Virus record (IMG/VR): IMGVR_UViG_3300045988_036168
Reading direction: 5' to 3' (one strand)
DNA length: 64,000 bases
From: a virus
Shown here: positions 4,111 to 55,010 of the stretch, in pieces
Position numbering within the stretch: position 1 is the first letter of the stretch
How the letters are laid out: each line of letters begins with the position of its first letter
Position numbers and translations under genes: made by a program
The notes under the pieces: model-generated
The model's input: only the letters and a program-made list of their open reading frames with translations
Databases searched by the model: none
What the model was told of the DNA's origin: nothing

Positions 4111-4138
4111 ATTGTACCATACGGCCTACCTAAAGCAA
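4111..4138 (-). promoter_or_regulatory. Sigma-70-type promoter with TAGGTAGG box (drives DUF488 gene and RNA locus)
   Basis: Minus strand TTGCTT-TAGGTAGGCCGTATGG-TACAAT (16-nt spacer), about 25 nt upstream of the ATG at 4082. Confidence 0.55.
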
Positions 4139-4368
4139 GGTTTTACGGTGTCGCTACGCATTTTTGTGACCTTGTTCGGATGCCTCGCGCCTCGCTGTGG
4201 CAGGCTGTGAAATCCCTTTTTAGGGGTGACACATACCCAGCCGATGGCCCTCCGCCTCACCGTTCCGCCGTCGTGGCGTTTTCGATGCAGGTTTCAGGCC
4301 CTCAGGCGCCGTGTGGTTGTGATACTCAGGGGTTCTCACCAAGCAGCGCCTTGCTGGGTCTGTTGCGC

Positions 4369-5538
4369 TTACTTGATGGCTTCGAGCAGCTTCTCCGCGG
4401 TGTCCGTCTGCTCCCAAGTACGCTCCTCGCCGATGACGTTGCCGAAGTGTCCGTAGGCGGAAGTGTTCTTGTAGACGGGCTTGCGAAGGTCAAGCCAGTT
4501 GATAATGCCTCTGGGGGTCAGATCATAGACGGCCTCGACGGCGTCGCAGATCTTATCCTCGGCGTACTTGCCGGTGCCGTAGGTATCGACTCGGATGCTC
4601 ACGGGCTGCGGTACACCGATTGCATAGGCGAGCTGGACCTGACACTTATCAGCGATTCCGGCAGCCACGATGTTCTTTGCGATGTGGCGGGCTGCATACG
4701 CTGCAGAGCGGTCAACCTTGGTGGGGTCTTTACCAGAGAAGGCGCCACCACCGTGCGCGGCATAGCCGCCGTAGGTGTCAACGATGATCTTACGTCCGGT
4801 GAGGCCCGAGTCCGCGGCAGGGCCACCCTTGACAAATCGGCCCGTGGGATTGATGAACAGGCTGTAAGTGACCACGTCCATATCAGGCCGATAGGTCAGC
4901 AGTTCGTCGAGGACAGGCTTGATGACGTGTTTCTGCAGGGGTTCGATCAGATCCTCCGGGGCAACACATTCCTCATGCTGGGTAGAGATGACGACGGTGT
5001 CAACCCGTACCGGGTTGCCCCCCTCGTCATACTCCACCGTTACCTGTGTCTTGCCATCGGGGAGGATGTGAGGGATCGTGCCATCCTTTCTCTTCTTCAT
5101 CAGCAGGTATGCCATCTTATTCGCCAGCGTGATAGGCAGGGGCATCAGATCCGGTGTCTCGTTACAGGCGTAGCCGAACATCATTCCCTGATCCCCCGCT
5201 CCGCCGACTCCATCGTTGGTTCCCATTGCGATGTCGGGACTCTGCTCGTCGATAGCTACCATCACCGCGCAGGTGTTGCCGTCAAATCCCGCCTTGGGGC
5301 TGTCATAGCCGATGTCCTTCAGGACGCCGCGGGCGATACCGGCAAAGTCGATGTAGTGCTCCGTGCTGATCTCGCCCATGACCAGCACCATGCCGGTCGT
5401 GCAGCAGGTCTCGCAGGCCACACGGCCATTCGGGTCATGCTTCATGACCTCGTCGAGCACTGCGTCAGAGATGCGGTCGCACACTTTATCGGGATGGCCT
5501 TCCGTGACCGATTCCGAAGTGAAGAGTATCTTGCTCAT
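4369..5538 (-). CDS. metK: S-adenosylmethionine synthetase
   Basis: 389 aa. [36 protein letters not shown] and [19 protein letters not shown] are hallmark MetK motifs. AAGGAGG RBS. Confidence 0.97.
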
Positions 5539-5722
5539 GCGTTGAACCTCCTTGTTGTCTTTCCGTTTCGTCTGGATTTCTTGTCACCCTCGGACTCTCC
5601 AGATTTTCTATGCTACACGATAATACAGGTTGATGGTGAACTTCAATCCCGTTCGCTCCCCATCAATTCTTGTTACTCTCTTTTTGTCTCTTTTCCTGTC
5701 TTTTACTCCCCGATACAGGTAT

Positions 5723-6010
5723 TCAAATGCGCTCACGGTGGACGGCTTCGCCGTGGAAGCAACACCCGCAGTAAACCCAGACGCCATCCTTGAAGGCGAA
5801 CGTCATAAACGTCGGGCGCCAGCGGCCATTCTCGTCTACCATGTGGTCGTATGCCTCGCCCACCTGCAGATACCCGCTCGACATGGATGCGGGCGGGACG
5901 CAGTCGCGGAAGTCATTGACAATCTGCTCGTCCACGGTGTCTCCGGGCTGTGCCGCTTTGTAGAAGTCCCCGGCCGCCGCCCAAACCTCCCGAGTGATGT
6001 GTTTGCTCAT
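5723..6010 (-). CDS. hypothetical protein (95 aa)
   Basis: ORF-track ORF, co-directional, 4-nt overlap with the upstream gene. No recognisable motif. Confidence 0.55.
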   Translation of the reverse strand: MSKHITREVWAAAGDFYKAAQPGDTVDEQIVNDFRDCVPPASMSSGYLQVGEAYDHMVDENGRWRPTFMTFAFKDGVWVYCGCCFHGEAVHRERI

Positions 6011-6534
6011 GCCTTATCCTCCTTGATGTAGTTTTCATTGAGCCAGTCGATCCATCCAGAGATACCTCCGCAGGCGTCCAGCACGTCATCCGCGTCATCC
6101 ACGATGCTCGATCCGTGCCAATGCCCCTTCGGGTCTTTCACGAATGCCTCGATCCAGCTATTGTTCTCAAATGCCACCTTGTTCTCAGCCGTTTCGTCTG
6201 CGTTGAGGGCGTCCCACAGCTCCGCGTCGCTCTTGAAGGTAGTCCTCAGAGTGTCAGATGCCGCCATGTTCATCGCGCCGGTGTTCTGCTTGTTCTTATA
6301 CAGGAAATCGTGGCCGTTCATGAAGCCGACGATCTCGACGTCTCCATGTACCTCGACGGACACCTCATAGCCCTTGTATCTCAGGCCACCGATATGGCCG
6401 CCGTACCACACGCAATCGAGGTGGTCATCGTCAATGAAAATGCTCTCCTCGGTCAGAAGCTCCGCGCCGAACGCCTTCGCGTCGGCCTGCATCTTGCGGT
6501 AGCGCCGCTCGATCTTATGCCGGCTCATAGCCAT
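6007..6534 (-). CDS. hypothetical protein (175 aa)
   Basis: ORF-track ORF in a coupled minus-strand operon. No recognisable motif. Confidence 0.6.
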   Translation of the reverse strand: MAMSRHKIERRYRKMQADAKAFGAELLTEESIFIDDDHLDCVWYGGHIGGLRYKGYEVSVEVHGDVEIVGFMNGHDFLYKNKQNTGAMNMAASDTLRTTFKSDAELWDALNADETAENKVAFENNSWIEAFVKDPKGHWHGSSIVDDADDVLDACGGISGWIDWLNENYIKEDKA

Positions 6535-7055
6535 CTCTCCTTCACCATCATATAGGCGTACACCGCCTTAACAGTTTCCTCCAGATTGCGGTTGCTGAAC
6601 CACGCATCCGCCATGACGTGCAGGTCCTCAAACTCCTTGGCATCGAACTGCAAGCGCTCTTTCACCGCCTCCGGTGCATCTCCGCGTTCGAGCATTCTCT
6701 CAGTTCTCTCCTCCTGTGGGGCATAGATGGCAATGACTACCACCTCTTTGCTGCCGGAATATCTCTCCCACATATACCGGATTCCAGCGGGGTCGATCAC
6801 ATAGATGTCGTTCTCCTCAATGACAGACTCCGGTACGCCGTAGCGGTAGCCGTTGTAAAGCGTAAACGCGCACATCTTGCCAGCCGCATCGAACTGCTCG
6901 GGCGTAACGAAGATATGGCCGGGTTCGCCATCGAAACGGGGCGGGCGCTCCGTGTATGACCAAACTTCCTTCAGGCCGTACCTCTGCGTCAGCTCGCGGG
7001 CGACGCTGGATTTTCCAGAACCGGACGGGCCGGCAAGCAGGTAGATGTTTTTCAT
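6525..7055 (-). CDS. Guanylate-kinase-like P-loop nucleotide kinase
   Basis: P-loop GPSGSGKSS plus SYTERPPRFDGEPGHIFV, which resembles the guanylate-kinase substrate motif. Confidence 0.7.
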   Translation of the reverse strand: MKNIYLLAGPSGSGKSSVARELTQRYGLKEVWSYTERPPRFDGEPGHIFVTPEQFDAAGKMCAFTLYNGYRYGVPESVIEENDIYVIDPAGIRYMWERYSGSKEVVVIAIYAPQEERTERMLERGDAPEAVKERLQFDAKEFEDLHVMADAWFSNRNLEETVKAVYAYMMVKERWL

Positions 7056-7056
7056 T

Positions 7057-7161
7057 CTATCTTTCCTCCGTCCTTGATTGCTCTGAGCGCGTCTTTAGCT
7101 CACGCAGAGAATGCTCGTGGTCGATCATCCACTGCAACTGGAACTTCTCGTAGTCGCTCAT
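7057..7161 (-). CDS. putative microprotein (34 aa)
   Basis: Not in the ORF track (under 60 aa). Its ATG overlaps the upstream stop as ATGA. Its TAG stop lies 1 nt before the kinase ATG, and the ORF carries that gene's GGAGGAAAG RBS. Confidence 0.4.
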   Translation of the reverse strand: MSDYEKFQLQWMIDHEHSLRELKTRSEQSRTEER

Positions 7162-7490
7162 GTTTCAGCTTCTCCTTTCTTCGGCCAGCTCGGCCCGCAG
7201 TTGAAAACGAGGTACAGGTGCTCACCGTAGTCCTCGATCCTGTCGCCAGACTCTTCGAGTCCATGCAGGTACGCCGTGTTCACCACGTCAACTGCGAGCC
7301 GCAGCTTTCTTGTGACGATGTGGAAATCGTACCCGACCAGCACGATTACCTGATGAATGTCATCAAGGAACCCGTTCAGGTCAAACTCCACATCGGTCAC
7401 ACCGTCGATGCCAAGTAGGTCGCATTCAAGTGATGCGCACTTCTCGGTGATGCCGTACCGTTCGGCGATCCGTGTAGTCTCGTCGTTCAT
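7158..7490 (-). CDS. hypothetical protein (110 aa)
   Basis: ORF-track ORF, 4-nt overlaps on both sides. Confidence 0.6.
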   Translation of the reverse strand: MNDETTRIAERYGITEKCASLECDLLGIDGVTDVEFDLNGFLDDIHQVIVLVGYDFHIVTRKLRLAVDVVNTAYLHGLEESGDRIEDYGEHLYLVFNCGPSWPKKGEAET

Positions 7491-7924
7491 CGAACCGCCC
7501 CTTTCACGTAGTACCGGCCAGCCTCCGCGACCGTGGTATCATCGAAGCAGTCGGTCATCGCACTACTGACCTTGCGGATCATCTCCGGGTCAAGGCCAGC
7601 ACGTTCCATTGCCATGATGGCGTAACCCTTGCAGGCGTCGTTGTTCCACGGTCCCTCAATCATCTGGGCCAGTACGCCAAGTCTTCCGGCTGCATAGCCC
7701 TCTGCTCGGATGCGCTCCACCGTCCTCTCGGGCAAGGCAATGCGCATGGATTTGCAGTCGAAGTCTTCGTCATCCGGGCTGCAGTCGAGCAGGCCAGCGA
7801 GCCTCTCTTCGATTGTGGCATCGTCCACCTCTTCCTCGATGTCCGTCGCCTCGAAGGCGTGATAGGTTTCGTAGGTGTCATGGCTTCTCTCTAAGCCGTA
7901 GTGCAGTTCAATTTCGTATGCCAT
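7487..7924 (-). CDS. hypothetical protein (145 aa)
   Basis: ORF 7487..7990 trimmed to ATG 7924, which is preceded by AAGGAGG. Confidence 0.6.
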   Translation of the reverse strand: MAYEIELHYGLERSHDTYETYHAFEATDIEEEVDDATIEERLAGLLDCSPDDEDFDCKSMRIALPERTVERIRAEGYAAGRLGVLAQMIEGPWNNDACKGYAIMAMERAGLDPEMIRKVSSAMTDCFDDTTVAEAGRYYVKGAVR

Positions 7925-7926
7925 AT

Positions 7927-8793
7927 TCACTCCTCCTTGCCGTACTGCTTGAATGTGCTCAGGTCGTATGCCCCAGCCACGCCGTTGCATTCGATCTCGC
8001 GGTCGATGAAATCCTGATCCGTCAGGCTGATGGTTCCGTCGTTACTCAGGTCTGCCGCCTTTTCTTCGGCATCTTCACGTCCGTCAGCCCAAATAATCAC
8101 GCTTCTGGACAGCGTTTCTCGGACTGTCACGCTGTACGGGCGCAGACCGTCCACCGGCGCGTCCGTGGACTCCATCCAGCCATTCGCAGCGTCCACGAAC
8201 TTGGCCGTCAGTTCCTCCGCTGTCACATGGAGCGTCGGCCGGTCGGCGGTAGGCTCAACGCCTACCCACTCAAACCACGGATGGTCCGCCTCGGTGACGC
8301 TGCCAAAACGGTCATCAGGCAAACCGACCTGCGACGGGATGAAGTAAACGCCTTCATCGAGGCTGTCCTCGATGGCCTTTTCCTGTTCCTCGCTCACGCT
8401 GCCGGCAATCACGACTTCGTGGCGAACCTTGTAGTTGTCTGCGTCGCGGTAAAGGTAGCTGATCTTGGTGTTGACCCGTGCCAGCCAGCCAAGCGTGTCG
8501 TTCATCGCTTCATCAAGCGACGCATACGGGTTTCGGACGTTGGCATTTTCATTGAAGCCGTTGACCACGTGCAACATGGCCTCCTCAATGCTCCGATAGC
8601 GCCTGCAGATGGTTTCCGCCGTTCCCTTGTGGTGCCCAGCAACCCCGAATGTGAACGGCTGGTAGCTGTCGTCCTCCTTGTGAATGCCGAGGCTCCAGTG
8701 CTTGTACTCGAAGAGCTCGTTGTGCCCTGCCTCCCAGCCGCCAGCCTCCTTGAGCCACTGCAGTATCAGTTCTTTTGTCAGGCGTCTGCTCAT
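7927..8793 (-). CDS. hypothetical protein (288 aa)
   Basis: Long co-directional ORF with GAGGAGG RBS. No confident domain. Confidence 0.65.
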   Translation of the reverse strand: MSRRLTKELILQWLKEAGGWEAGHNELFEYKHWSLGIHKEDDSYQPFTFGVAGHHKGTAETICRRYRSIEEAMLHVVNGFNENANVRNPYASLDEAMNDTLGWLARVNTKISYLYRDADNYKVRHEVVIAGSVSEEQEKAIEDSLDEGVYFIPSQVGLPDDRFGSVTEADHPWFEWVGVEPTADRPTLHVTAEELTAKFVDAANGWMESTDAPVDGLRPYSVTVRETLSRSVIIWADGREDAEEKAADLSNDGTISLTDQDFIDREIECNGVAGAYDLSTFKQYGKEE

Positions 8794-8904
8794 GCTTCTT
8801 CCTCCTCGTCTAAATTGTAGTGATGGATAACGGTCGGCTCGTCATGCCCAATGTCATATACGGTTGCCCGCAAGCCCCTTCCAAATCGTTAGATTTGGTG
8901 GGGG

Positions 8905-9375: not shown

Positions 9376-9587
9376 GCCTGCTCTCCTGCGCCAAACAGAA
9401 ATGTCTCCTGCTGGCGGTAGTAGGCCAGCGCTTCTGAGAAGCGGCTTGCCGTAAACGTCTTCGTCTGCTGGGTGTGCGCCTTCTTGTTCCAGACATTGAC
9501 GGTCAGCTCGATATACTCCAGCTCGTAGTTGATGTTCAGGTTCATACTGATGTTGAAGTCCTGCTCGTCCCGGACTTTCAGAATCAT
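9372..9587 (-). CDS. hypothetical protein (71 aa)
   Basis: ORF 9372..9629 trimmed to ATG 9587, which is preceded by GAGGAGGG. Confidence 0.55.
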   Translation of the reverse strand: MILKVRDEQDFNISMNLNINYELEYIELTVNVWNKKAHTQQTKTFTASRFSEALAYYRQQETFLFGAGEQA

Positions 9588-10575: not shown

Positions 10576-10631
10576 CGTTATTTCCTCCTACTGGTTATCT
10601 TAAATTATCCATCTGGTTATCTTATGAGTAT

Positions 10632-10726: not shown

Positions 10727-10757
10727 GCAGAAAAAGAGCAGGCCGCAAAGCCTGCTC
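10727..10757 (-). terminator. Intrinsic terminator after the sigma-like regulator gene
   Basis: Minus strand GAGCAGGC-TTTGCGG-GCCTGCTC followed by TTTTTCT. Confidence 0.75.
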
Positions 10758-10765: not shown

Positions 10766-11284
10766 CTATTCAGTTTCGTCGTAGTCGTCGGGGTTCCACA
10801 TCAGGCCGTTATCTTCGATGTACTGGGCCATGCTCAATAAAGCTCTGCCGTGGAGTTTGAACACCCGCTTGCGGTACATATCCTCCCGTTCCAACAGATC
10901 CTCCTCGTCCCCGTACAGCAGATCCACCACATCGCCCCAGCTTGCCCCGTCGAGGTATCGGCTTCGGATGACAGCCCGCTCGTCGGAGTGTTTCAGCCGA
11001 CGGATGATTTTCTCGAAGAACATCCTCTCCCGCCGTCTGTGTTCCAGCGTCGCCCGGATGTCTTCCTCAAGGTCGAACTTCTGCTGCATCAAGTCTGAGA
11101 TGCGGTCGTTGGATGGGCTCGGCGATTTTGGCATATCCGTGAGGGCTTGGGCTCCCACGCCTACCAGCTTCGTCTCCAACCGCTCCAGCCTCTCGGACTG
11201 ATTTTCGATTTCACGCCTCAGATCACGGAGGTCTATCAGCCGTTGCTTGACGGCCTCGACGTCGTAGTGTTTTTCCTCGTTCAT
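10766..11284 (-). CDS. Sigma-70 region-4-like / DUF1492-type phage transcriptional regulator
   Basis: 172 aa. Coiled-coil N-terminus, MPKSPSPSNDRISD loop, and C-terminal SRYLDGASWGDV..RKRVFKLHGRALLSM resembling region-4 HTH regulators of Firmicutes phages. Confidence 0.5.
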   Translation of the reverse strand: MNEEKHYDVEAVKQRLIDLRDLRREIENQSERLERLETKLVGVGAQALTDMPKSPSPSNDRISDLMQQKFDLEEDIRATLEHRRRERMFFEKIIRRLKHSDERAVIRSRYLDGASWGDVVDLLYGDEEDLLEREDMYRKRVFKLHGRALLSMAQYIEDNGLMWNPDDYDETE

Positions 11285-23029: not shown

Positions 23030-23545
23030 CTACTTTGATCCATGGGCATCACCATCTTCGTTCAGAGCCATCTCTCCGATGGTCTTCAGCTCGCTCACGG
23101 TCTTTGCCAGATCGTCGAGGTAGGCCAAAACCTCTTGAAGCGCCGGTTTCTCGTCTTCGGTGATTTTCCCGTCAGCCGCGATGTCAAGGAGCGTGTCCTT
23201 GACATCTCCGAGCTTTTCGGTCTTCAGGCTCTTCAGCAGCTTGACCGTCACGCGGTCAATGCCCACCACTTCATCGGAGAGCGAATGCCTGCATCCAATC
23301 GGGCACTCGTTCAAGCAGTAGTGGTTCAGCAGCCACGGGGCGTTGTACCTGTCAGCCATGAGCACCGCCTTATCGACCGGCATGAACTTTGTGTTCCCCA
23401 GCTCTGCATCTGCCAGCGAAGATACCGACATTCCGAGTTGCTCAGCCGCGCTCTCACGGCTACATAGCCTGTCATCATATTCAGCAGCCTTTTTTCTGGC
23501 TTGATACCACGGATTTCCCGCCGCTTTCGTAGCGTCACGTCCCAT
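23030..23545 (-). CDS. HTH (XRE-like) regulator with Cys-rich middle domain
   Basis: SRESAAEQLGMSVSSLADAELG looks like an HTH. CLNECPIGC cluster. Confidence 0.55.
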   Translation of the reverse strand: MGRDATKAAGNPWYQARKKAAEYDDRLCSRESAAEQLGMSVSSLADAELGNTKFMPVDKAVLMADRYNAPWLLNHYCLNECPIGCRHSLSDEVVGIDRVTVKLLKSLKTEKLGDVKDTLLDIAADGKITEDEKPALQEVLAYLDDLAKTVSELKTIGEMALNEDGDAHGSK

Positions 23546-23653
23546 TTTCTCTGAGCCTCCAATCGCCTATAATTACCGTAGTGGCAAGATAAATTATCCA
23601 ATCGGCTAATCATCGGGCAAAAAAATATACACCGACGCCGATGATGGCCTCGA

Positions 23654-23872
23654 TTAACCAGTTGGCAACTTGCCGTCGAAGAAAAAGTCGTTCACCTGCG
23701 CATTGTTCAGCGTGAGCAGGCTGGCGACCTCCGGGACTTCATCCAAGGTAAACTCTACTTCGCCTCTCTCTTTTCTCCCATAGGAGACTTCCGTGAGGCC
23801 GAGCTTCTCTGCCATGTACTTCTGCGTAAATCCAAGCCTTGCGCGGGCTCCCTTGATTTCGAGTGGTTTCAT
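23654..23872 (-). CDS. Cro-like XRE-family HTH regulator (72 aa)
   Basis: ORF trimmed to ATG 23872. ARARLGFTQKYMAEKLGLTEVSYGRKERG. Divergent from the CI-like gene. Confidence 0.75.
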   Translation of the reverse strand: MKPLEIKGARARLGFTQKYMAEKLGLTEVSYGRKERGEVEFTLDEVPEVASLLTLNNAQVNDFFFDGKLPTG

Positions 23873-23926: not shown

Positions 23927-23955
23927 ATTATAATTATCCACGTGGCTAATGTCAA
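23927..23955 (-). promoter_or_regulatory. Early (Cro-side) promoter
   Basis: Minus strand TTGACA-17 nt-TATAAT. The spacer contains TGGATAAT (the ATTATCCA box at 23933-23940). Confidence 0.6.
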
Positions 23956-23986
23956 TAGTTTTTTGCAGTTTTATCGCAAAAAATGT

Positions 23987-24015
23987 TTGCGATTTTACCC
24001 AAAGAGCTTTACAAT
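23987..24015 (+). promoter_or_regulatory. Repressor-side promoter
   Basis: Plus strand TTGCGA-17 nt-TACAAT, 42 nt upstream of the ATG at 24057. Confidence 0.6.
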
Positions 24016-24056
24016 GGCTAATACAAACAATCACGCTGGCAAAGGAGAAGCACATC

Positions 24057-24395
24057 ATGGAACTCGAACTCGATTTTACCGCCTTCAAGAAGAACCTGCG
24101 CGACCTAATTGAAAGCAGGGGTCTCTACGCCAAGGACATCGCCGCAGAGATCAACGTCTCAACGCCTACCCTGTCGAGATACCTTCAGGGCGTCCGTGAA
24201 CCCGAACTCAAGTACGTCGTTCGGCTCGCCCGCTACTTCGGCGTTTCTGTTGACTGGCTGCTGGGCCTCAGCAACGACCGCTACGAGGCAGTCCCCACAG
24301 AAGTCCGCGAGTTTGCCACTCTGTACGCTCTGGCCTCGCCAGATGACCGTACCATCGTCGAAACTGTACTCAAAAAATATCGAGAGGAGAACTAA
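24057..24395 (+). CDS. CI-like XRE-family repressor (112 aa)
   Basis: ORF trimmed to ATG 24057 (AAGGAG RBS). AKDIAAEINVSTPTLSRYLQGVREP is the HTH. Confidence 0.75.
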   Translation: MELELDFTAFKKNLRDLIESRGLYAKDIAAEINVSTPTLSRYLQGVREPELKYVVRLARYFGVSVDWLLGLSNDRYEAVPTEVREFATLYALASPDDRTIVETVLKKYREEN

Positions 24396-28394: not shown

Positions 28395-28422
28395 ATTATA
28401 TCATATTATACCTCGAAGTCAA
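28395..28422 (-). promoter_or_regulatory. Promoter of the DinJ-YafQ cassette
   Basis: Minus strand TTGACT-16 nt-TATAAT. Confidence 0.55.
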
Positions 28423-44830: not shown

Positions 44831-44925
44831 ATCGCTGTCTCCTTTTCTTTGTAAGAAAACCGGAGACTTTCCTGAACTGTTGCTCTGGCTATCTCCGATT
44901 ATCCATCTGGTTATTTTGTAACTTT

Positions 44926-44953
44926 ATTATACTGCGATACCTACCTATGTCAA
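44926..44953 (-). promoter_or_regulatory. Sigma-70-type promoter with TAGGTAGG box
   Basis: Minus strand TTGACA-TAGGTAGGTATCGCAG-TATAAT. Lies inside a 57-bp block (44915-44971) identical to 53884-53940. ATTATCCA box at 44898-44905. Confidence 0.65.
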
Positions 44954-45009
44954 TATGTTTTCGTTAATTTTTATGAAGAAATTTTCTATCTATATACGTT
45001 TCGCGATAT

Positions 45010-45186: not shown

Positions 45187-45684
45187 TTATTCTTTTTTCG
45201 GCCCCTTTTCGATCTGGGTGCCATACTTCTCCACGAATGCGGCGGCGACGCTGGATTGGACTGTCCGCAGCCTGTCCTTGGACGTGTCCGTGTGATACTC
45301 CGCCATGAAATACCGGCCTTCGCTGTCAACGTACAACTCAGCGGCTTCGCCGTCTGCATTGAACTCGTTGACGCCGTCCTCATAAAAGCTGTTCGAGATG
45401 GCCTCCGCAGCCGCGGTATCGAACGTAATCTTGTCGCAGTTACCGCACAGCCTGCGGCCGTGCCCGCTGACGTGAGGCTTCAGGATCTCGCCAGTCTTGC
45501 GCATCGTGAAGGTCACATCGACGCCGAGAACGTCCATGAGTGCCAAAAACTCGTCAGCCCTGATGCTGTTCCGGTTCAAACGCAGGTTGAAGTTCTGCGG
45601 AGTCCAACCCATTTGACGGGCGAGCCACGCCTGCGAGTTCTTCGTTTTCGCCAGAGCTGCATCCATAAGTTCTCTCGATGTCAT
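45187..45684 (-). CDS. HTH-domain regulator (165 aa), monocistronic
   Basis: ORF trimmed to ATG 45684 (GGAGGTG RBS). NSQAWLARQMGWTPQNFNLRLNRNS looks like an HTH. Has its own promoter and terminator. Confidence 0.6.
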   Translation of the reverse strand: MTSRELMDAALAKTKNSQAWLARQMGWTPQNFNLRLNRNSIRADEFLALMDVLGVDVTFTMRKTGEILKPHVSGHGRRLCGNCDKITFDTAAAEAISNSFYEDGVNEFNADGEAAELYVDSEGRYFMAEYHTDTSKDRLRTVQSSVAAAFVEKYGTQIEKGPKKE

Positions 45685-45720: not shown

Positions 45721-45749
45721 ATGATACATCGAAACAGATGCAAAATCAA
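45721..45749 (-). promoter_or_regulatory. Promoter of the monocistronic HTH gene
   Basis: Minus strand TTGATT-17 nt-TATCAT. Confidence 0.55.
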
Positions 45750-49667: not shown

Positions 49668-49678
49668 GTTGTCCCTCC

Positions 49679-50047: not shown

Positions 50048-50339
50048 CCAGATACCTCCTCATTTCTTCCGCATCATCGCGGACTTGTTCGTTGAGCCAC
50101 CGCTTCAACTCAGATCGCTCCCACGATTGCTTCTGCATCGGGCGTACCGGCACCATCGCAGCAATGCCGCCCGTATCTCTGGCAAGCCCTTTAAGAGCGT
50201 CGCACCTTTCCTGTGTGGCGGGTACATCCTCAAAAACCAGCGTTGTGCTGCCGCCAGATGTATATACCGACTTTACCGTGAACGGTTGGTCACTGATGTT
50301 GACGATGTCGCCCGGTTGCAAATCGGCTACCGTCTTCAC
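49989..50339 (-). CDS. hypothetical protein (116 aa)
   Basis: ORF trimmed to GTG 50339, 1 nt after the upstream stop. The 3' end overlaps the next gene by 59 nt. Start is uncertain. Confidence 0.4.
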   Translation of the reverse strand: MKTVADLQPGDIVNISDQPFTVKSVYTSGGSTTLVFEDVPATQERCDALKGLARDTGGIAAMVPVRPMQKQSWERSELKRWLNEQVRDDAEEMRRYLDEQHQPESGSGGTDHEGRS

Positions 50340-50340
50340 G

Positions 50341-50685
50341 TCACTCGTCCTCCTCGTCGTCGATTTCAGGCAGAGCCGAACTCGGGTGCTGCCAGTCGCA
50401 GTACCAGAACAGGTGTCTGGCCTTCTCCACGTCCCCGCCGCACTCTTCAATGAAGTCGTTGCCGGTGTAGCAGCAACCGACGATTTCCTCCACGTCCTCC
50501 GGGCCGTTCGCGGGTTCCGTGACCGGAATCAGGTTCAGGGCAAGGTCGGGAATGTAAATGATGTCGTCGCCCTGTTCAAATCGAGCAGCCTTGAAGATTT
50601 CACAATCCTGACCGTTTCTGAACGCGAACAGGTTGTCCATGATGGCTCCGCCGAGCAATTTCTCGCGCAATTCTGCCTTTGTCAT
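50341..50685 (-). CDS. hypothetical acidic protein (114 aa)
   Basis: ORF trimmed to ATG 50685 (ATGA overlap). Confidence 0.5.
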   Translation of the reverse strand: MTKAELREKLLGGAIMDNLFAFRNGQDCEIFKAARFEQGDDIIYIPDLALNLIPVTEPANGPEDVEEIVGCCYTGNDFIEECGGDVEKARHLFWYCDWQHPSSALPEIDDEEDE

Positions 50686-51191
50686 TCCTGAGTGCCTCCT
50701 CTGCAAAGACTTTCGCCACAGCCGGGGCAGTAGTCGGGGTAATCGGGAGCGTCGCAGTCCTCATACCAGATGTGGTTGCACCGGAGGCATCTATACTGCC
50801 GCAGTTCCACGTCCTCGGCAGGCCCGTCGCCTGTCTCGTATTTTCTCTGTGCTTTTGCCGCCTGAGCGGCTTCCTTTTCCCCGGCCAGCCACATCATGCA
50901 CTCGGTCAGGTCGGGGAACTCTTCCGTCCAAGCGTCGCCGGTGCTATTGTCGATGCCGATGTACTCAACGCCAGTCTCCAGCACGAACAGGCCACGAGGC
51001 CCGCGGTGTTCGATGATGGCGTTTGCCTCCTGCTGGCTGACGTATTTGAACCACCGATAGTCCTCATGTACCACGCCGCAGTTGGGGCAAACCCAAAGTG
51101 GGACGTTGTTGCGCTTCCCGAACCTGCCAAAGTAGATGTCCCGTGAAACGTAGCTTCCGCAGTCATAGCATCTTGTAGCCTGAGCTATCAT
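50682..51191 (-). CDS. double zinc-ribbon protein (169 aa)
   Basis: ORF trimmed to ATG 51191 (AAGGAGG RBS). CYDCG..CPNCG and CLRCN..CPGCG. Confidence 0.55.
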   Translation of the reverse strand: MIAQATRCYDCGSYVSRDIYFGRFGKRNNVPLWVCPNCGVVHEDYRWFKYVSQQEANAIIEHRGPRGLFVLETGVEYIGIDNSTGDAWTEEFPDLTECMMWLAGEKEAAQAAKAQRKYETGDGPAEDVELRQYRCLRCNHIWYEDCDAPDYPDYCPGCGESLCRGGTQE

Positions 51192-51204
51192 TTCCACACC
51201 TCCT

Positions 51205-51393
51205 TCAGTTCCAGCACAAGTTTCGGATCTCTCGATCAGAAAGTCCAATCGTTCCATCCAACATCTCGGTCAGGAAGTCGTACTGTTCGTCGCCTCCCAT
51301 GCGGTCGGCGTACTCCAAAACGTTTCGGAGGATGCGAGCCGCAGCGCCGTCAATGTCGAACTCTTCCAACAGCCACTCATACGCCTTTTCCAT
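51205..51393 (-). CDS. hypothetical protein (62 aa)
   Basis: ORF trimmed to ATG 51393, just after the upstream TAA. Start is uncertain. Confidence 0.45.
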   Translation of the reverse strand: MEKAYEWLLEEFDIDGAAARILRNVLEYADRMGGDEQYDFLTEMLDGTIGLSDREIRNLCWN

Positions 51394-51394
51394 A

Positions 51395-52315
51395 TTAGCG
51401 GCCACCAGCCCTTTCGTATTCATGCACCGTCCGGTGCTCGCCGTCGTCTTCAACATAGGGGCGGTGGATGTCGAACCCGTGGTCGAGCATCACCTGCTGC
51501 ACCGCATCGACAGCCTCGCCGATGTGGTACATATCCCAGTCGAACTCGTCCTCGTCCTGTTCCAGAAGAACCAGCAGGAACCGGTACATAGCGTTGTCGA
51601 TCTCGTCCAGACGCTCAATCTGGCGAGGCGACAGCTCTGCTCGGTCATCTTCGTCATCAGACTTGCCTTGCAGCACATCCTCCATCGCAGACGCCAGCTT
51701 GTTCAGCATCAGTTTGATGTCATCAGCATCCTTCACAAGCGTCTTGAGGTCAGGGACGCCGGACACCCGTCCCTGTGCTTCAATCCACATCTTGGCGTGT
51801 TCCTCAGCGTCGAAGCCATTCGCATAGGAACGAATCTCGCGCACCATGTCGTCCGCGTTGCGGACGTCGCTCGCGCTGATGTCGAAAGAGAAATCTTCAC
51901 CGGCGGGGCTGTTCTGGATGAACTCCCATTCGGTGTCGCTTTCGCGGACGCACCAGCCAAGCTCCTCGGCTTTATCGAGCAGATCGTCGATGTTCACGTC
52001 GTTCCCCAACTCACCGAGGTCAATCTCGATGACGGGCATCTCCTGGCTGAGGCCCACACAGTATTCGCACCAAGCGTCAGTCGGTTCGTCCGTGTCTTCG
52101 TCGTAATCGCAGAGGGCAAGGCTTTCGATGCCAGCGGCCTGCGCAATCTCGCGCATCACGTCTCCATAGCAGGAGCCGTTGCGCTCGAAGCCACGCATCC
52201 GCTCTTTGATGCTCTGCTCAATGTCGTCGGCCTGTTCCTGCGGAACGACCATAACGCTGTCCATCCAGCGGTTCATTTCGGATTTGCACCGAATGGCTAC
52301 CATGTTTTCACTCAT
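51395..52315 (-). CDS. hypothetical, strongly acidic protein (306 aa)
   Basis: Long ORF rich in D/E throughout. No domain recognised. Confidence 0.65.
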   Translation of the reverse strand: MSENMVAIRCKSEMNRWMDSVMVVPQEQADDIEQSIKERMRGFERNGSCYGDVMREIAQAAGIESLALCDYDEDTDEPTDAWCEYCVGLSQEMPVIEIDLGELGNDVNIDDLLDKAEELGWCVRESDTEWEFIQNSPAGEDFSFDISASDVRNADDMVREIRSYANGFDAEEHAKMWIEAQGRVSGVPDLKTLVKDADDIKLMLNKLASAMEDVLQGKSDDEDDRAELSPRQIERLDEIDNAMYRFLLVLLEQDEDEFDWDMYHIGEAVDAVQQVMLDHGFDIHRPYVEDDGEHRTVHEYERAGGR

Positions 52316-52498
52316 ATCGTCTGTCCTTTCCTACACATCCGCATTGACGCGGACGTAATTTCAAATTAGCCGCATGGAAACCAACACCCGTAGAAGCCCC
52401 TGAGAGGCTCTGTATGGCACGTTTCCGTGCGGTGGTGAAAGTGTATGCTTTTCGCCGTAGAGCACGTTCTCGGTCTTGTGCGTCGGTTTTGGCAGGTG

Positions 52499-52783
52499 TT
52501 ACGCCTTGCTGTTGGGACTGCTCAGTAGCTCCAGCTCTCTCTCGATGGTCTCGTCGAGCCTGTGCGAGAGGTTCTGGGTGAGCCACAAATCGGTCGGCGT
52601 GTACTCCGTAACATCTTCCCCAGTCTGCCGGTAGAAGCCATCCATCGCCGCCTGACCCATGCCGTACTCAGCTCTGCTCTCTCGCCAAGCATCAGTCAGC
52701 TTGACCCGATGCCTCTGAAGCTGTTCGAGCGTCATCCGCCCGATGTCCTCGGTAAGCAGCTTCCTCGCCTGTGCTATCTTCAT
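52499..52783 (-). CDS. hypothetical protein (94 aa)
   Basis: ORF-track ORF. GGAGGA RBS. Confidence 0.55.
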   Translation of the reverse strand: MKIAQARKLLTEDIGRMTLEQLQRHRVKLTDAWRESRAEYGMGQAAMDGFYRQTGEDVTEYTPTDLWLTQNLSHRLDETIERELELLSSPNSKA

Positions 52784-52795
52784 CTGTGCTTCCTC

Positions 52796-52975
52796 CTACA
52801 AGATGCCGAGCTGCCGGTTACGGTTATGTACGTCAACGCCGATCTCACCGATGGCGGCGAGCAGGTCGCGCTTCTCTTCTGTGTCGTTGGACTTCTCCCA
52901 GCGGTCGATAGCCTCCTTCAAGGCGTCGATGTAGCTGGCATTCGTGCGGAGCAACTCCACCGCCGTCTTATTCAT
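52796..52975 (-). CDS. putative protein (59 aa)
   Basis: Just below the ORF-track cutoff. ATGA overlap upstream. Its TAG stop is followed by the GGAGGA RBS of the next gene. Confidence 0.55.
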   Translation of the reverse strand: MNKTAVELLRTNASYIDALKEAIDRWEKSNDTEEKRDLLAAIGEIGVDVHNRNRQLGIL

Positions 52976-53346
52976 TCCGACGCCTCCATTTCATCGACCA
53001 GTTCCCACCGGGTCTTGTACTGCTTCTGGATTTTCCAGTCAACGATGCGCATATCGTTGGCGGTGTCCTCGTCAATCACAATGTCGATGCCGAAGCCGCC
53101 ACACATCTGCGTCTGGGTATGGGTGCCTTTGCTGCGTTCGCGGATCAGCGCGTTCAGAGCATCGACTGCGGCCTGCTGGCTCTTGAACGTATGGCGGCCG
53201 ACCCAGTTCATTTCCTGCCAGCCCTTCGCCATGTTCTCCAAAATCCAGAACCCGCGGCCGCTGCGCTTCATCCACGCATCCTGATAGAGAACGCGCCATA
53301 CCGGAATCAGTTCCACGCCGTCAACAACGATCTTCTTGTCTTCCAT
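52972..53346 (-). CDS. hypothetical protein (124 aa)
   Basis: ORF trimmed to ATG 53346. Confidence 0.55.
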   Translation of the reverse strand: MEDKKIVVDGVELIPVWRVLYQDAWMKRSGRGFWILENMAKGWQEMNWVGRHTFKSQQAAVDALNALIRERSKGTHTQTQMCGGFGIDIVIDEDTANDMRIVDWKIQKQYKTRWELVDEMEASE

Positions 53347-53348
53347 GT

Positions 53349-53609
53349 TTACGCTTCCTTTCTGGAGCAAAGCTCCGGTTGATACTGCAGAACCTCTTCG
53401 ATGATGTGCTTGGCCTTGACGATGCCGAACTCCTGAAGAAGCTGCTGCGGCGTGTAGATGTCCGCCATCCTGACCGACCGGCGGCCGGTCGTGTACGCTT
53501 TCTTGAGCGCCGTCTTGCTGGTGTACTCGGTGCTGAACGCCCAGCGCATATACTCGGAACCGCACTGGTTGTTGCCGCTACGCTTGACGAAGTAATACGC
53601 CTTCCCCAT
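53349..53609 (-). CDS. hypothetical protein (86 aa)
   Basis: ORF-track ORF. Confidence 0.55.
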   Translation of the reverse strand: MGKAYYFVKRSGNNQCGSEYMRWAFSTEYTSKTALKKAYTTGRRSVRMADIYTPQQLLQEFGIVKAKHIIEEVLQYQPELCSRKEA

Positions 53610-53620
53610 AGCTGTTCTCC

Positions 53621-53848
53621 TTATCCGTAAATCTGAGTGACGATCTCAACGCCGGCATTGATGGCTGCCGGGATGTCCGTCCCGAGCTGCCGGTAGAAGT
53701 CAGGATGAACAATGCACTCATAAGCTCTGCACATCGTATCTCTCTGCTCCGCCGTGATGTTGATGCGGAAACCCTTTGCAATCCGAAGGGCCTCTTTGAA
53801 GTTGCCCGCGGCTACGGCTTCGCGCACGATGTCAGATTTACGTTTCAT
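53621..53848 (-). CDS. hypothetical protein (75 aa)
   Basis: First ORF after the promoter at 53895-53922. Confidence 0.55.
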   Translation of the reverse strand: MKRKSDIVREAVAAGNFKEALRIAKGFRINITAEQRDTMCRAYECIVHPDFYRQLGTDIPAAINAGVEIVTQIYG

Positions 53849-53894
53849 GGTCTCCGTCCCTTTCTAATTAGCCGGTTGGTTAATTTGTAACTTT

Positions 53895-53922
53895 ATTATA
53901 CTGCGATACCTACCTATGTCAA
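53895..53922 (-). promoter_or_regulatory. Sigma-70-type promoter with TAGGTAGG box
   Basis: Minus strand TTGACA-TAGGTAGGTATCGCAG-TATAAT. The 57-bp block 53884-53940 is identical to 44915-44971. Confidence 0.65.
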
Positions 53923-53990
53923 TATGTTTTCGTTAATTTTACAAATTATTTTTCTGTATCATATTCACATACGTTTATATTCGACAGGCA

Positions 53991-54027
53991 GAAAAAGACG
54001 GCCCCGGCACAAGGCCGAGGCCGCCCA
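53991..54027 (-). terminator. Intrinsic terminator after the antirepressor-like cassette
   Basis: Minus strand GGCGGCCTCGGC-CTTGT-GCCGGGGCCGTC (12 bp, two G:U) followed by TTTTTCT. Confidence 0.7.
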
Positions 54028-54028
54028 C

Positions 54029-54556
54029 TCACGCTTCTGCGGTCACTATGTACTTTTTGAGCTCAAGCAGCTCCAACAAAATCGCGTCGATTCGCCGGTT
54101 GATGGCGTCGCTTCCAGCTTTAGGGGGAGGTGTCGGCTTCTCGGGGACAGCTACCTGCGTCGGTGCTGGCAGCTCCGTCGGCGTCTGCTCGTCTGGCTTT
54201 CCCAGCTTACAGGCGAACACCTTGCCCTCGATCCATGCCCTCGTTTCCTTGCTGCATCCGAAGATGTCCAAAATCATCCGCCCGCAGCGTTCGGTCACGA
54301 AGTACATCGGCACAGACCGGCGGGATGCGCCACCCGTCTTCCCGTTGACCGGAAAAGGCAGTTTCACCAGCTTCACGTCGCTCTCGCTCTTTGCTTCGCG
54401 CTGGCACCACTTGGTCGGATAGGCGCAGCCACAGGCGGCCAGCAGATCCCGTGCCGCATACATCGTCTCGCCTTCGTTCAGGAGAACGCGGACTGCGCTT
54501 CCCTCCTGCTCCACAACGGCTACTCTGCCAATGAAGCTCTTGACGGTCTCGCTCAT
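54029..54556 (-). CDS. Possible Bro-N/antirepressor-like protein with Pro-rich linker
   Basis: VRVLLNEGETMYAARDLLAACGCAYPTKW and MYFVTERCGRMILD..SKETRAWIEGKVF loosely follow the Bro-N pattern. Weak call. Confidence 0.4.
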   Translation of the reverse strand: MSETVKSFIGRVAVVEQEGSAVRVLLNEGETMYAARDLLAACGCAYPTKWCQREAKSESDVKLVKLPFPVNGKTGGASRRSVPMYFVTERCGRMILDIFGCSKETRAWIEGKVFACKLGKPDEQTPTELPAPTQVAVPEKPTPPPKAGSDAINRRIDAILLELLELKKYIVTAEA

Positions 54557-54825
54557 ACCGCACCGCCTTTCTCCGCTTCACGGTTCGCAAAGTTCACCGC
54601 GAAGATGGCGTTGCAGACCTCCATGTGGCCGGCGAACTCTTCCATCTCACCCATCAGCGCGTGAACTCTGTCCTTGATCTCGTAGAAGGCCAAGGCGCCT
54701 CTGTCCCTCTTCTCTGCCTCTCCCTCGGCCATGTCGAGGAAGTAGAAGTAGGTGGACTCGAACATCTCCAGAAATACATCCAGCTTTGCCGCGTCCGCTC
54801 TCAATTTGTCGGGGGTCGTCATCAT
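54553..54825 (-). CDS. hypothetical protein (90 aa), paralog of 28487..28759
   Basis: Same length and shared motifs FE.TY, AFY, AG, AI.AVN. AAGGAG RBS. Confidence 0.55.
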   Translation of the reverse strand: MMTTPDKLRADAAKLDVFLEMFESTYFYFLDMAEGEAEKRDRGALAFYEIKDRVHALMGEMEEFAGHMEVCNAIFAVNFANREAEKGGAV

Positions 54826-54850
54826 AAGTGTATTGCTCCTTTCGTCGTTC

Positions 54851-54879
54851 TTGACAGCGGCCGGCAGCCATGTTACACT
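54851..54879 (+). promoter_or_regulatory. Plus-strand promoter facing the 54983-55010 promoter
   Basis: TTGACA-17 nt-TACACT, located in the 5' leader of the minus-strand cassette. Confidence 0.5.
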
Positions 54880-54885
54880 TACCTT

Positions 54886-54968
54886 GCTCAGAGGTGTGTA
54901 ACGCAGTCACAGGTGGCTGCCGAACCGCCGGAACCCTTGGTGTTGCAAGCACTGAGGGTTCTTTTTTG
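54886..54968 (+). ncRNA. Predicted cis-antisense sRNA of about 83 nt
   Basis: Starts downstream of the 54851-54879 promoter. Ends at GAACCCT-17 nt-AGGGTTC + TTTTTTG (54931-54968). No ATG/RBS inside. Fully complementary to the minus-strand leader. Confidence 0.45.
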
Positions 54969-54982
54969 TTTCCTGTGATTTG

Positions 54983-55010
54983 ATTATAACATTTTACCTA
55001 CCTAAAGCAA
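54983..55010 (-). promoter_or_regulatory. Sigma-70-type promoter with TAGGTAGG box (antirepressor-like cassette)
   Basis: Minus strand TTGCTT-TAGGTAGGTAAAATGT-TATAAT. Followed by a structured leader of about 150 nt. Confidence 0.6.

Follow-up and report, generated by a model that had tools for sequence, protein, structure and literature searches.

Copies of one promoter cassette head lytic-direction operons of a Brigit-like temperate gut phage

Promoters and regulator genes of the window

The window, the whole stretch of 64,000 nucleotides of viral DNA analyzed here, carries five minus-strand promoters (P1 to P5; Table 1) that share the box TAGGTAGG. The first-pass annotation had located its plus-strand form CCTACCTA at 4125, 10646, 44940, 53909 and 54997; exactly these positions were recovered, and an exhaustive count within the window returned no further copy on either strand. 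The hexamers had likewise been read correctly (TTGCTT/TACAAT, TTGACT/TATAAT, TTGACA/TATAAT twice and TTGCTT/TATAAT). At all five sites the box lies directly 3′ of a TTGnnn -35 hexamer, and since TAnAAT begins 8 nt past the end of the box, the spacer is 16 nt throughout (TTGnnn-16-TAnAAT), as claimed. The reported 57-bp identity between 44915-44971 and 53884-53940 is exact and ends there, and the box is indeed absent from PR, from the RelB/YafQ (DinJ-type) promoter and from the HTH promoter at 45721-45749. Five copies compare with 0.42 expected in the window (mean of shuffles; maximum, 3). All are situated on the gene strand in intergenic gaps of the gene map, with minus-strand genes bearing Shine-Dalgarno sites downstream of each. 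Copies of the 8-mer with one mismatch were at chance level in the window (18 found, 16 expected); thus, the box stands out only as an exact match within a promoter. Its core, GGTAGGT, is found four times on the gene strand of the window, always within box promoters, with no copy on the opposite strand (0.9 expected). The box constitutes a contiguous 4-nt tandem repeat, TAGG-TAGG, within the spacer beside an intact -35.

Table 1. Coordinates of promoters, operator sites and regulator genes in the window
Feature	Position	Strand	Remarks
Promoter P1	4111..4138	-	TTGCTT-TAGGTAGGCCGTATGG-TACAAT; TGn extended -10; without immunity operator
Promoter P2	10632..10659	-	TTGACT-TAGGTAGGTAACGCAG-TATAAT
Promoter P3	44926..44953	-	TTGACA-TAGGTAGGTATCGCAG-TATAAT
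Promoter P4	53895..53922	-	TTGACA-TAGGTAGGTATCGCAG-TATAAT; after strong terminator 53996-54026
Promoter P5	54983..55010	-	TTGCTT-TAGGTAGGTAAAATGT-TATAAT; TGn extended -10
Box-less control promoter	28395..28422	-	Spacer TCGAGGTATAATATGA; drives RelB/YafQ toxin-antitoxin pair
PR, Cro-side early promoter	23927..23955	-	TTGACA-[TTAGCCACGTGGATAA]T-TATAAT; operator fills 17-nt spacer; no box
Second immunity operator	23594..23609		Just downstream of cro
Immunity-operator palindrome, promoter P2	10605..10620		About +5 to +20; ATAACCAGATGGATAA on gene strand
Immunity-operator palindrome, downstream of promoter P3	44899..44914		
Immunity-operator palindrome, downstream of promoter P4	53868..53883		TTAACCAACCGGCTAA
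Operator-like palindrome, upstream of promoter P5	55033..55048		Two mismatches; about -60 to -45
DUF1492/LtrB-family late transcriptional activator (LtrB)	10766..11284	-	Last gene of early operon
CI-type XRE repressor	24057..24395	+	Presumed reader of palindrome
Cro-type HTH protein	23654..23872	-	First gene downstream of PR
YmfL/CII-like early regulator (phrog_6499)	23030..23545	-	Alternative candidate box reader
165-aa N-terminal HTH protein (HTH-165), conserved	45187..45684	-	Second alternative candidate box reader

The core of the cassette is of the host sigma-A type, with a TTGACA/TTGACT or TTGCTT -35, a 16-nt spacer and a TATAAT-like -10, and its copies often carry a TGn or TRTG extended -10; an UP-element-like AT-rich tract is found upstream of P2, P3 and P4. 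According to the gene map and synteny with Brigit, P1 heads a block that comprises a tRNA array and a ParB-like gene and then runs towards packaging genes beyond position 1. P2 starts 107 nt past the LtrB stop codon, after a hairpin terminator (10736-10757, with a T run), whereas no terminator separates it from its first gene, which lies about 50 nt downstream. P5 is followed by a structured leader of about 170 nt and by genes for proteins of 90 and 175 amino acids. The control promoter displays the same cassette (AT-rich upstream tract, AACATA, TTGACT, 16 nt, TATAAT) without box and without operator. Each of the five sites is a copy of a single cassette that heads lytic-direction operons of a Brigit-like temperate phage of about 100 kb; judged from its sequence, this conserved host-type promoter is very strong and starts most lytic-direction operons of the phage.

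The product of the last early-operon gene, previously described as sigma-like, does contain a weakly sigma-region-4-like HTH, but its family is that of the DUF1492/LtrB late activators. It matches phrog_36 (4e-19), its homologues carry PF07374, and its AF2 model (pLDDT 88) consists of a long helical hairpin and the C-terminal HTH. Of all regulators of the clade, the YmfL/CII-like protein is the best conserved. HTH-165 has its own box-less promoter and sits just upstream of P3. The open frame of CI reaches back to 23949, but a start there would overlap PR.

Conservation of the box and a separate immunity operator

The proposal of a phage-specific promoter class was supported by comparison with related phages and host promoters. 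Box positions -28 to -19 (approximately) did not vary in any of the 11 TTGAC-type promoters compared, which come from three diverged phages of three host genera (LtrB 56-63% and CI 50-53% identical to those of the window). Information content was 1.8 bits at these positions, equal to that of the hexamers, and 0.3-1.1 bits at -17 to -13, the first 8 to 10 spacer bases, TAGGTAGG(TA), being conserved as strongly as both hexamers. Conservation runs the full length of the cassette, UP-like tract and initially transcribed AAAGTTACA included, and the same spacer slot in relatives also hosts alternative sequence families. In G001, the nearest complete genome (3.6 Mb), all six TTGnnnTAGGTAGG-N8-TAnnnT sites lie inside one 70-kb prophage stretch, and the box was present in none of ten G001 host promoters of the form TTGACn-16-TATAAT, the spacers of which mostly start with a T run. 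GGTAGG-type promoters numbered four in G001, five in G400 and eight in G402, all on one strand, with 0 in reversed-pattern controls. GGTAGGT occupies spacer positions 3-9 in the window's lineage versus 6-12 in G402, G405 and G406; this 3-bp shift, which brings it closer to the -35 in the window's lineage, leaves the spacer length unchanged. The P1 orthologues of G400 and G404 carry a degenerate box, TAGGnGGTGTA.

A second element, the palindrome TTAnCCAnnTGGnTAA, fills the PR spacer and recurs after cro and at +5 to +20 of P2, P3 and P4. All 11 copies with a consensus -35 have an immunity operator, whereas none was present at the TTGCTT copies examined, namely P1, P5 and the G400 orthologue of P1. 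Each phage's PR spacer holds its own palindrome, which is repeated after that phage's cassette promoters and measures 16 bp in the window's lineage versus 14 bp (TTACCnnnnGGTAA) in G405 and G406. While the palindrome changes with the immunity type, the GGTAGGT core is common to both types, and the box occurs without a palindrome at P1, P5 and six G406 promoters. The first of two earlier suggestions, that the box is an operator by which one repressor silences five units, is therefore not supported in that form: the immunity operator is the palindrome, which covaries with immunity type in relatives as the box does not, and which P1 lacks. On the same grounds, the box was rejected as the CI/Cro operator. 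A single repressor probably silences several units, via the palindrome rather than the box. We infer that the box is the address of a clade-conserved, phage-encoded factor that is independent of immunity type.

Candidate readers of the box

The other suggestion, that the sigma-like protein reads the box, was favored by its late-activator family and by the confinement of the box to the clade, although binding is a prediction and two further conserved regulators, the YmfL/CII-like protein and HTH-165, are no less available for this role. LtrB is the most likely candidate reader, to which we would give not quite an even chance. A cassette promoter follows the LtrB gene by about 80-420 nt in 24 of the 24 loci examined with an LtrB of at least 44% identity. 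GGTAGG-type promoters occurred only in loci with an LtrB of at least 45% identity (34 on the gene strand, 0 on the other) and in none of about 50 loci with an LtrB of 44% identity or less. Phages with distant LtrB proteins (38-41%) carry 7-nt direct repeats after ltrB (GCAGTAA, GACAT), one copy of which is located at the 5′ end of the spacer, the position of the box, and their repeat unit RGTAA resembles AGGTAA. In eight genomes with a YmfL-like regulator and without LtrB, box promoters were not above control level.

Several observations count against LtrB. In three relatives the promoter directly after its gene is without an intact box: the spacer holds an operator-type sequence in G406 and belongs to a different type in G405 and G407. 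Brigit shows a box-like spacer, CCGGTGGGTAA, after a regulator without hhalign relation to LtrB, and G179 has two box promoters while LtrB was not detected in this 77% complete genome. The degenerate box of the P1 orthologues and the contiguous 4-nt tandem repeat, unlike the spaced 7-nt Ltr repeats, also argue against this reader. A face-specific activator should not easily tolerate the 3-bp register shift, whereas an occluding repressor would. Activation should also be superfluous where a promoter combines consensus hexamers with an UP-like tract, and the twin at 28395-28422, which lacks the box, presumably fires unaided. CI, the YmfL-like regulator, HTH-165 and LtrB diverge in parallel and co-occur with the box at the clade level, so that covariation cannot single out LtrB.

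Tolerance of the shift, as at an occlusion site, would suit a second, non-CI repressor or shut-off factor conserved in the clade, for which HTH-165 and the YmfL/CII-like protein are the predicted candidates; we regard this as rather unlikely. By occupying the spacer, such a factor would exclude RNA polymerase; it would either hold P1 and P5 silent in the lysogen or dampen the whole class at one stage or another of infection. The clade does place repressor sites in spacers (PR and several G405-G407 cassette promoters hold the immunity palindrome there), the best boxes go with the strongest cores, where no activator is needed, and something must silence P1 and P5 in the lysogen, as both have an extended -10 and no CI operator. 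Every box phage tested had both HTH-165 (47-62% identity) and the YmfL-like protein (55-80%), and in the window, G400, G405, G406 and G179 the HTH-165 gene immediately precedes a cassette promoter; G179 is the genome with box promoters and no detected LtrB. However, this repressor would be redundant with CI at P2-P4, the expression of either candidate in the lysogen is an assumption, and there is no apparent way to remove it upon induction. Moreover, XRE-type HTH dimers typically bind inverted rather than direct repeats, and YmfL-like homologues of 38-52% identity occur in genomes without box promoters.

Less probable still is that the box has no dedicated reader and is an intrinsic spacer element tuning host sigma-A RNA polymerase at a 16-nt-spacer promoter, by twist, flexibility or polymerase contacts, its uniformity resulting from promoter-strength selection and cassette copying. 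This would fit the conservation of the entire cassette rather than of the box alone, the positional freedom seen in the register shift, and the conserved spacer of relatives, which in part consists of TRTG, the extended -10 motif of Gram-positive bacteria. Yet the ten G001 host promoters, with consensus hexamers and the same spacer length, contain nothing box-like, the box-less cassette at 28395-28422 indicates that the core can do without the box, and alternative sequence families fill the slot in relatives; ten contiguous invariant bases across three host genera also exceed the usual needs of spacer effects. We consider it very unlikely that the box is an auxiliary CI/Cro half-site cooperating with the palindrome at +5 to +20, a modified form of the operator proposal. 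The right half of the 14-bp operator (GGTAA/GGTGT) does share its spacer register with the right end of the box, and operator-type and box-type spacers of phages with this operator have positions 8-12, T(A)GGT, in common; but the half-site of the window's lineage, GGnTAA, has no match in the box, which is identical across two immunity types and stands without a palindrome at P1, P5 and the six G406 promoters. Recent duplication of one promoter with a functionless box, as the block shared by P3 and P4 might suggest, is highly improbable, being contradicted by P1 and P5, which have only CTTGCTTTAGGTAGG in common and flanks different from those of P2-P4, and by the invariance of the box, next to variable bases, among phages with proteins 50-63% identical to those of the window.

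Related systems and a proposed cascade

In phages infecting Gram-positive bacteria, terS promoters are the targets of the Ltr superfamily of late activators (RinA, ArpU, LtrA/Sigma70_r4, LtrB/DUF1492 and LtrC; Quiles-Puchalt et al. 2013, PMC3753634; Ferrer et al. 2011, PMC3152322), the members of which use direct repeats to switch on the promoter immediately beyond their own gene (PMC3753634). Here, too, the CI-controlled early operon closes with a DUF1492-family gene, immediately followed by a terminator and by a promoter with a short direct repeat, and the promoter class leads to packaging and morphogenesis genes. In contrast to the described sites, which are two to four spaced 7-nt repeats upstream of one terS promoter, the TAGG-TAGG repeat is contiguous, lies in the spacer and is present in five to six copies over about 80 kb, most of which also bear the immunity operator; LtrB dependence is predicted. 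In lambda, the Q-binding element of PR′ is placed between -35 and -10. The arrangement of P2 is similar in that a strong constitutive promoter immediately follows a late regulator gene and the (here candidate) site of the regulator is in the spacer; however, LtrB is unrelated to Q, and P2 has no terminator before its first gene. Nor does the layout, in which every unit is served by a promoter of its own behind a terminator, point to read-through control. The stoperators of cluster A mycobacteriophages are asymmetric repressor sites in one orientation, many per genome. The box resembles them in its asymmetry, its restriction to the direction of transcription and its several copies per genome, but it always occupies a fixed promoter position, never occurring within or between genes without a promoter, and the immunity repressor here has a separate palindromic operator.

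Phage P1, temperate and about 94 kb in size, reportedly contains many dispersed C1-controlled operators, and its Lpa-dependent late promoters are said to share a conserved element centered near -22. Both phages are thus large and temperate, with one repressor over several dispersed promoters and a second promoter class marked by a phage-specific spacer-region element upstream of a normal -10. Whereas the direct repeat found here stands beside a good -35, in phage P1 an inverted repeat takes the place of the -35; moreover, the two signals here are combined in individual promoters, the phage infects a Firmicute, and the proteins of the two phages are unrelated. PMC8198154 cites the role of Lpa in phage P1.

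With LtrB as the reader, CI would shut PR and the strong copies P2-P4 in the lysogen, while P1 (towards the packaging genes) and P5, with their weak -35, would be silent because LtrB is absent. Upon induction, PR would express the early operon, with LtrB as its last gene; LtrB would then bind the box next to sigma region 4, turn on P1 and P5 and boost the other copies. If this holds true, the LtrB step would give the temporal cascade that the first-pass annotation had proposed.

The box promoters and their phage

The first-pass annotation had listed five minus-strand promoters (P1 to P5 in the table) with a common box beside the -35 hexamer. An exact search bore this out: the 8-mer CCTACCTA (plus strand; TAGGTAGG on the minus strand) has exactly five copies in the window, each in the same promoter setting, and none in the opposite orientation. 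Dinucleotide shuffles of the window contained on average 0.42 copies of the 8-mer and at most 3, and its one-mismatch variants were at chance level (18 versus 16 expected). GGTAGGT has four copies on the gene strand, all of them within box promoters, and none on the opposite one; the sub-motifs AGGTA and TAGG are frequent on both strands. All five sites follow the minus-strand layout TTGnnn-TAGGTAGG-8 nt-TAnAAT, the box and these 8 nt thus making up a 16-nt spacer. The 57-bp block common to the P3 and P4 copies, also noted in the first reading, proved exactly identical. A gene map based on codon usage placed almost all genes on the minus strand, and the five box sites are all intergenic, each ahead of a gene that has a Shine-Dalgarno sequence. 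Our literature search found no paper describing the box.

The box promoters conform to the sigma-A type (-35 near TTGACA, -10 near TATAAT, spacing of 16 to 18 nt). P3 and P4 score 12/12 against the consensus and P2 scores 11/12; P1 and P5 combine a TTGCTT -35 with a TGn extended -10. In two 20-kb consensus scans, the sites scoring 11/12 and 12/12, the best there, were exactly the box promoters. Terminators lie upstream of these promoters and not downstream: hairpins identified by scanning precede P4 and, less strongly, P5, and a hairpin with a T run, read by eye from the sequence, precedes P2. The P2 leader of about 50 nt contained no hairpin followed by a T run. The P5 leader (about 170 nt) holds nested hairpins and a good opposite-strand promoter with its own terminator-like hairpin.

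Promoters and genes discussed, with positions in the window
Feature	Coordinates	Strand	Box start (plus strand)	Remarks
gp21-like gene	908-2302			464-aa product
P1	4111-4138	-	4125
P2 leader	10576-10631	-		AGATAACCAG twice
P2	10632-10659	-	10646	TTAnCCAnnTGGnTAA match at +5 to +20
LtrB (DUF1492 family)	10766-11284	-		172-aa product
YmfL/CII-like regulator	23030-23545	-
PR (Cro-side early promoter)	23927-23955	-		TTAnCCAnnTGGnTAA match in spacer
CI open frame	23949-24395	+		ATG with ribosome-binding site at 24057
Box-less cassette promoter	28395-28422	-		TTGACT-TCGAGGTATAATATGA-TATAAT; drives RelB/YafQ toxin-antitoxin pair
P3	44926-44953	-	44940	TTAnCCAnnTGGnTAA match at +5 to +20
HTH-165 (165-aa HTH protein)	45187-45684	-
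P4	53895-53922	-	53909	TTAnCCAnnTGGnTAA match at +5 to +20
P5 leader	54826-54982	-
Promoter within P5 leader	54851-54879	+		TTGACA-17-TACACT
P5	54983-55010	-	54997	two-mismatch TTAnCCAnnTGGnTAA copy upstream
XRE protein	55121-55489

The gene order is that of Faecalibacterium phage FP_Brigit, and the 464-aa protein has 59% identity to Brigit gp21. The minus-strand order runs from a serine integrase through a hypothetical gene, CI, Cro, the YmfL/CII-like gene, exonucleases, RecT, a replisome organiser and a DnaC-like loader to, further on, RtcB, the small regulator and the gp21-like and ParB-like genes; the window ends, at position 1, short of the terminase and virion genes. Comparisons were made with the nearest complete genome (G001) and with viral records. 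G001 carries the same phage as a prophage of about 100 kb, and a near-identical viral record (G403) of 103.6 kb is rated 99% complete. The window is circularly permuted relative to G001:C1:1678000-1783000, with the integrase in mid-window but at the prophage end in G001, which fits a ~100-kb phage assembled in its virion form or as a circle. Megablast of 20 kb against phage records gave no match, and no Rfam family was found in the window.

Homologues of the small regulator were collected from host-family genomes and viral contigs, and the whole records were then scanned. In these relatives, which come from three host genera, the promoter cassette is present in 3 to about 12 copies each, all on the gene strand and with a spacer that is nearly always 16 nt. 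We compared 11 TTGAC-type promoters from three phages, namely, that of the window and G001 and two relatives (G400 and G404) with 56 to 63% identity to the window in LtrB and 50 to 53% in CI. Positions -28 to -19 (TAGGTAGGTA) were invariant in 11/11 and carried 1.8 bits, as did the two core hexamers (-35 and -10); only 0.3 to 1.1 bits were found at positions -17 to -13. GGTAGGT is the core retained in the wider clade; it occupies spacer positions 3 to 9 in the window's lineage and positions 6 to 12 in G402, G405 and G406, where it adjoins a TRTG-type extended -10. The six box promoters of the 3.6-Mb G001 genome all fall within 70 kb; the sixth copy is in DNA that the window does not cover. This comparison indicates that the box is under selection and phage-specific. 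The earlier proposal of a phage-specific promoter class thus holds, as the box is invariant in diverged relatives, confined to the prophage in G001 and missing from consensus-type host promoters there.

Other spacers were also seen. In G405 and G407, spacers of a third family, TnnnCGCnCGGT, are found repeatedly. FP_Brigit has a single cassette-like promoter (L007, 13149-13176; TTGACT-CCGGTGGGTAAAGGGT-TAGAAT) downstream of gp18, a regulator whose C-terminus resembles a sigma-region-4 HTH by eye and for which hhalign detects no relation to LtrB.

A separate immunity operator

Between the CI and Cro genes, a 16-bp palindrome (TTAGCCACGTGGATAA) was read from the sequence; it fills the 17-nt PR spacer. 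The pattern TTAnCCAnnTGGnTAA, with up to two mismatches allowed, has seven matches in the window versus 0.85 expected; in addition to those in the table, matches lie just past cro and, as a weak one, at the cro end. PR has no box, which thus is not part of the PR/PRM switch region. The PR spacer of each relative holds that phage's own palindrome, and the same version is found downstream of its cassette promoters; the form is 16 bp in G404 and G400 and 14 bp (TTACCnnnnGGTAA) in G405 and G406. Therefore, the palindrome covaries with immunity type, whereas the GGTAGGT core does not. The box was rejected as the CI/Cro immunity operator because it is missing from PR and its core is the same across immunity types. 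The first reading had suggested that one repressor could silence all five units through the box. In that simple form the suggestion is not supported; one repressor probably silences several units, through the palindrome.

In the window's lineage, the operator accompanies 11 of 11 promoters with a consensus -35 and none of the TTGCTT-type promoters examined (P1, P5 and the P1 orthologue of G400), an association that, with few promoters and related phages, is a pattern and not a statistical test. One of the two AGATAACCAG copies in the P2 leader is the left half of the operator, and the second adjoins the Shine-Dalgarno sequence of the first gene; at the equivalent site, G400 has two complete operators in tandem. 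The 14-bp palindrome, or a degenerate copy, sits in the spacer of some cassette promoters in G406 (L146, L151 and L156) and G405 (L172), and a perfect copy also lies at about +17 to +30 of the same promoters, which gives two operators per promoter. The CI open frame reaches back to overlap PR. A short 112-aa form starting at the internal ATG is more likely to be the real protein, since the 36 codons upstream lie in another frame in G403.

Candidate readers of the box

LtrB matches phrog_36 ("transcriptional regulator"; 4e-19). Its own Pfam DUF1492 match is below threshold (17.8 bits versus a cut-off of 21.5), and many of its homologues are annotated as PF07374/DUF1492. An AlphaFold model (28 sequences, pLDDT 88) comprises a long helical hairpin and then a three-helix C-terminal domain. 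Foldseek returned no match to this model at E < 0.001, and the sole notable fold matches of the C-terminal domain were weak ones to sigma region 4. Searching PDB chains with the LtrB and YmfL-like sequences brought no useful match. The DUF1492 proteins form the LtrB family, whose members are made from a CI-controlled early operon and activate the promoter directly distal to their own gene via spaced direct repeats of ~7 nt, present in 2 to 4 copies just distal to the gene (Quiles-Puchalt et al. 2013, PMC3753634). The LtrB gene of the window likewise stands at the end of the early operon, and P2 starts 107 nt past its stop codon. A cassette promoter lies downstream of the LtrB gene in 24/24 loci examined at ≥44% identity. 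GGTAGG-type promoters were detected only in loci with LtrB at ≥45% identity (34 on the gene strand, 0 on the other) and in none of about 50 loci with LtrB at ≤44%.

Unlike the published sites with their spaced 7-nt repeats, the window has only a contiguous TAGG-TAGG, located in the spacer. In distant LtrB phages (38 to 41%; L100-L145), 2 to 4 direct repeats of GCAGTAA, GAGTAAA or GACAT directly follow the ltrB stop, phased at 10 to 12 nt in one phage, and lead into a TTGAAA-18-TGnTATCCT promoter. By its layout, this arrangement resembles a classic Ltr site, here in a clade that has not been studied. For GCAGTAA and GACAT, one of the repeats sits at the spacer's 5' end, immediately past TTGAAA, which is the box position, and the distant unit resembles the box (RGTAA versus AGGTAA). 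These comparisons suggest that LtrB may read the box as an activator, a reading that we hold at slightly short of an even chance. Against it stand the 3-bp register shift of the GGTAGGT core, the consensus quality of the core promoters, the fact that in G405, G406 and G407 the promoter immediately following LtrB has no intact box, and the box-like spacer of Brigit behind a regulator not linked to LtrB.

Among known designs, we class the box system as a variant of the Ltr type of late-promoter control. Its distinguishing features are a site placed within the spacer, with an intact -35 next to it, and several dispersed copies of the promoter, most of which also carry the immunity operator. Late promoters of the phage P1 Lpa type consist of a -10 and an inverted repeat near -22 that replaces the -35; the box is a direct repeat, and a -35 is present. 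A lambda Q-type late promoter has a downstream terminator that the factor overrides, and such an antitermination design was rejected because no terminator lies past P2. In a CII-like design, repeats flank a weak -35 and direct lysogeny genes; this design was rejected because the box promoters face in the lytic direction.

A second repressor as the reader of the box is an unlikely, if credible, alternative. Besides LtrB, two other regulators come into consideration as readers, and both are present in all box phages: the YmfL/CII-like early protein (55 to 80% identity among them; 54% in Brigit) and HTH-165, encoded just upstream of a cassette promoter in several. One genome (G179) has HTH-165 and two box promoters, with LtrB and the YmfL-like gene not detected in an assembly only 77% complete. 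Eight genomes with a YmfL-like protein (38 to 52%) and without LtrB had box promoters not above control level. No LtrB match came from 11 additional viral contigs that contain the box exactly; all are ≤81% complete, and by our own estimate about 100 chance matches to the 15-base pattern are expected in the collection from which they come. The XRE protein was dropped as a candidate for universal reader, since G405 and G406 lack it. No mosaic phage separating the candidates was found, and CI, the YmfL-like protein, HTH-165 and LtrB diverge in parallel, so that covariation cannot single out the reader.

That the box is an intrinsic polymerase element is rather improbable. The spacers of ten TTGACn-16-TATAAT host promoters in G001 mostly start with a T run, and a box-like spacer was found in none of the ten. 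A seventh cassette copy, the box-less promoter at the integrase end, lies downstream of a terminator and shares the upstream tract, TTGACT, the 16-nt spacing and TATAAT with the cassette; it has neither box nor operator. The same core with a different spacer indicates that the core cassette can occur without the box. This promoter is kept in G001 and G403, and its RelB/YafQ genes are expected to be expressed in the lysogen. We consider it quite improbable that the box is a CI half-site; its core stays the same where the palindrome changes. A box without function is scarcely credible beside its invariance in diverged phages.

A proposed two-layer model

The best-supported model has two layers, a palindrome lock and a box address. 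CI palindromes would lock PR and the strong cassette copies, and the box would be an address that a conserved phage factor reads whatever the immunity type. More broadly, the fixed 16-nt spacer of a "super-promoter" cassette may hold the immunity palindrome, the GGTAGGT box or TnnnCGCnCGGT; an extra operator slot at +5 to +20 may be optional; the timing of each operon over 100 kb may be set combinatorially; and a DUF1492/LtrB activator may act within the spacer, right beside sigma region 4. Taken as a whole, with exchangeable spacer slot, optional operator slot, combinatorial timing and LtrB inside the spacer, this broader reading is doubtful. We know of no description, for Ltr proteins or other Firmicutes activators, of an activator working from inside the spacer beside sigma region 4.

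Temperate phages are abundant in the dominant gut Clostridia (Faecalibacterium and relatives), and to our knowledge their gene regulation is essentially unstudied. For one widespread clade of ~100-kb phages, the present analysis yields a regulatory map that is open to testing. It comprises the immunity operator, the promoter cassette and a further conserved signal for which three candidate readers are named. From its sequence, the cassette is predicted to be a compact, very strong and repressible promoter that could serve genetic tools in hard-to-engineer anaerobes. If LtrB does read a spacer site next to an intact -35, this would extend the presumed mode of action of the large Ltr/DUF1492 family.
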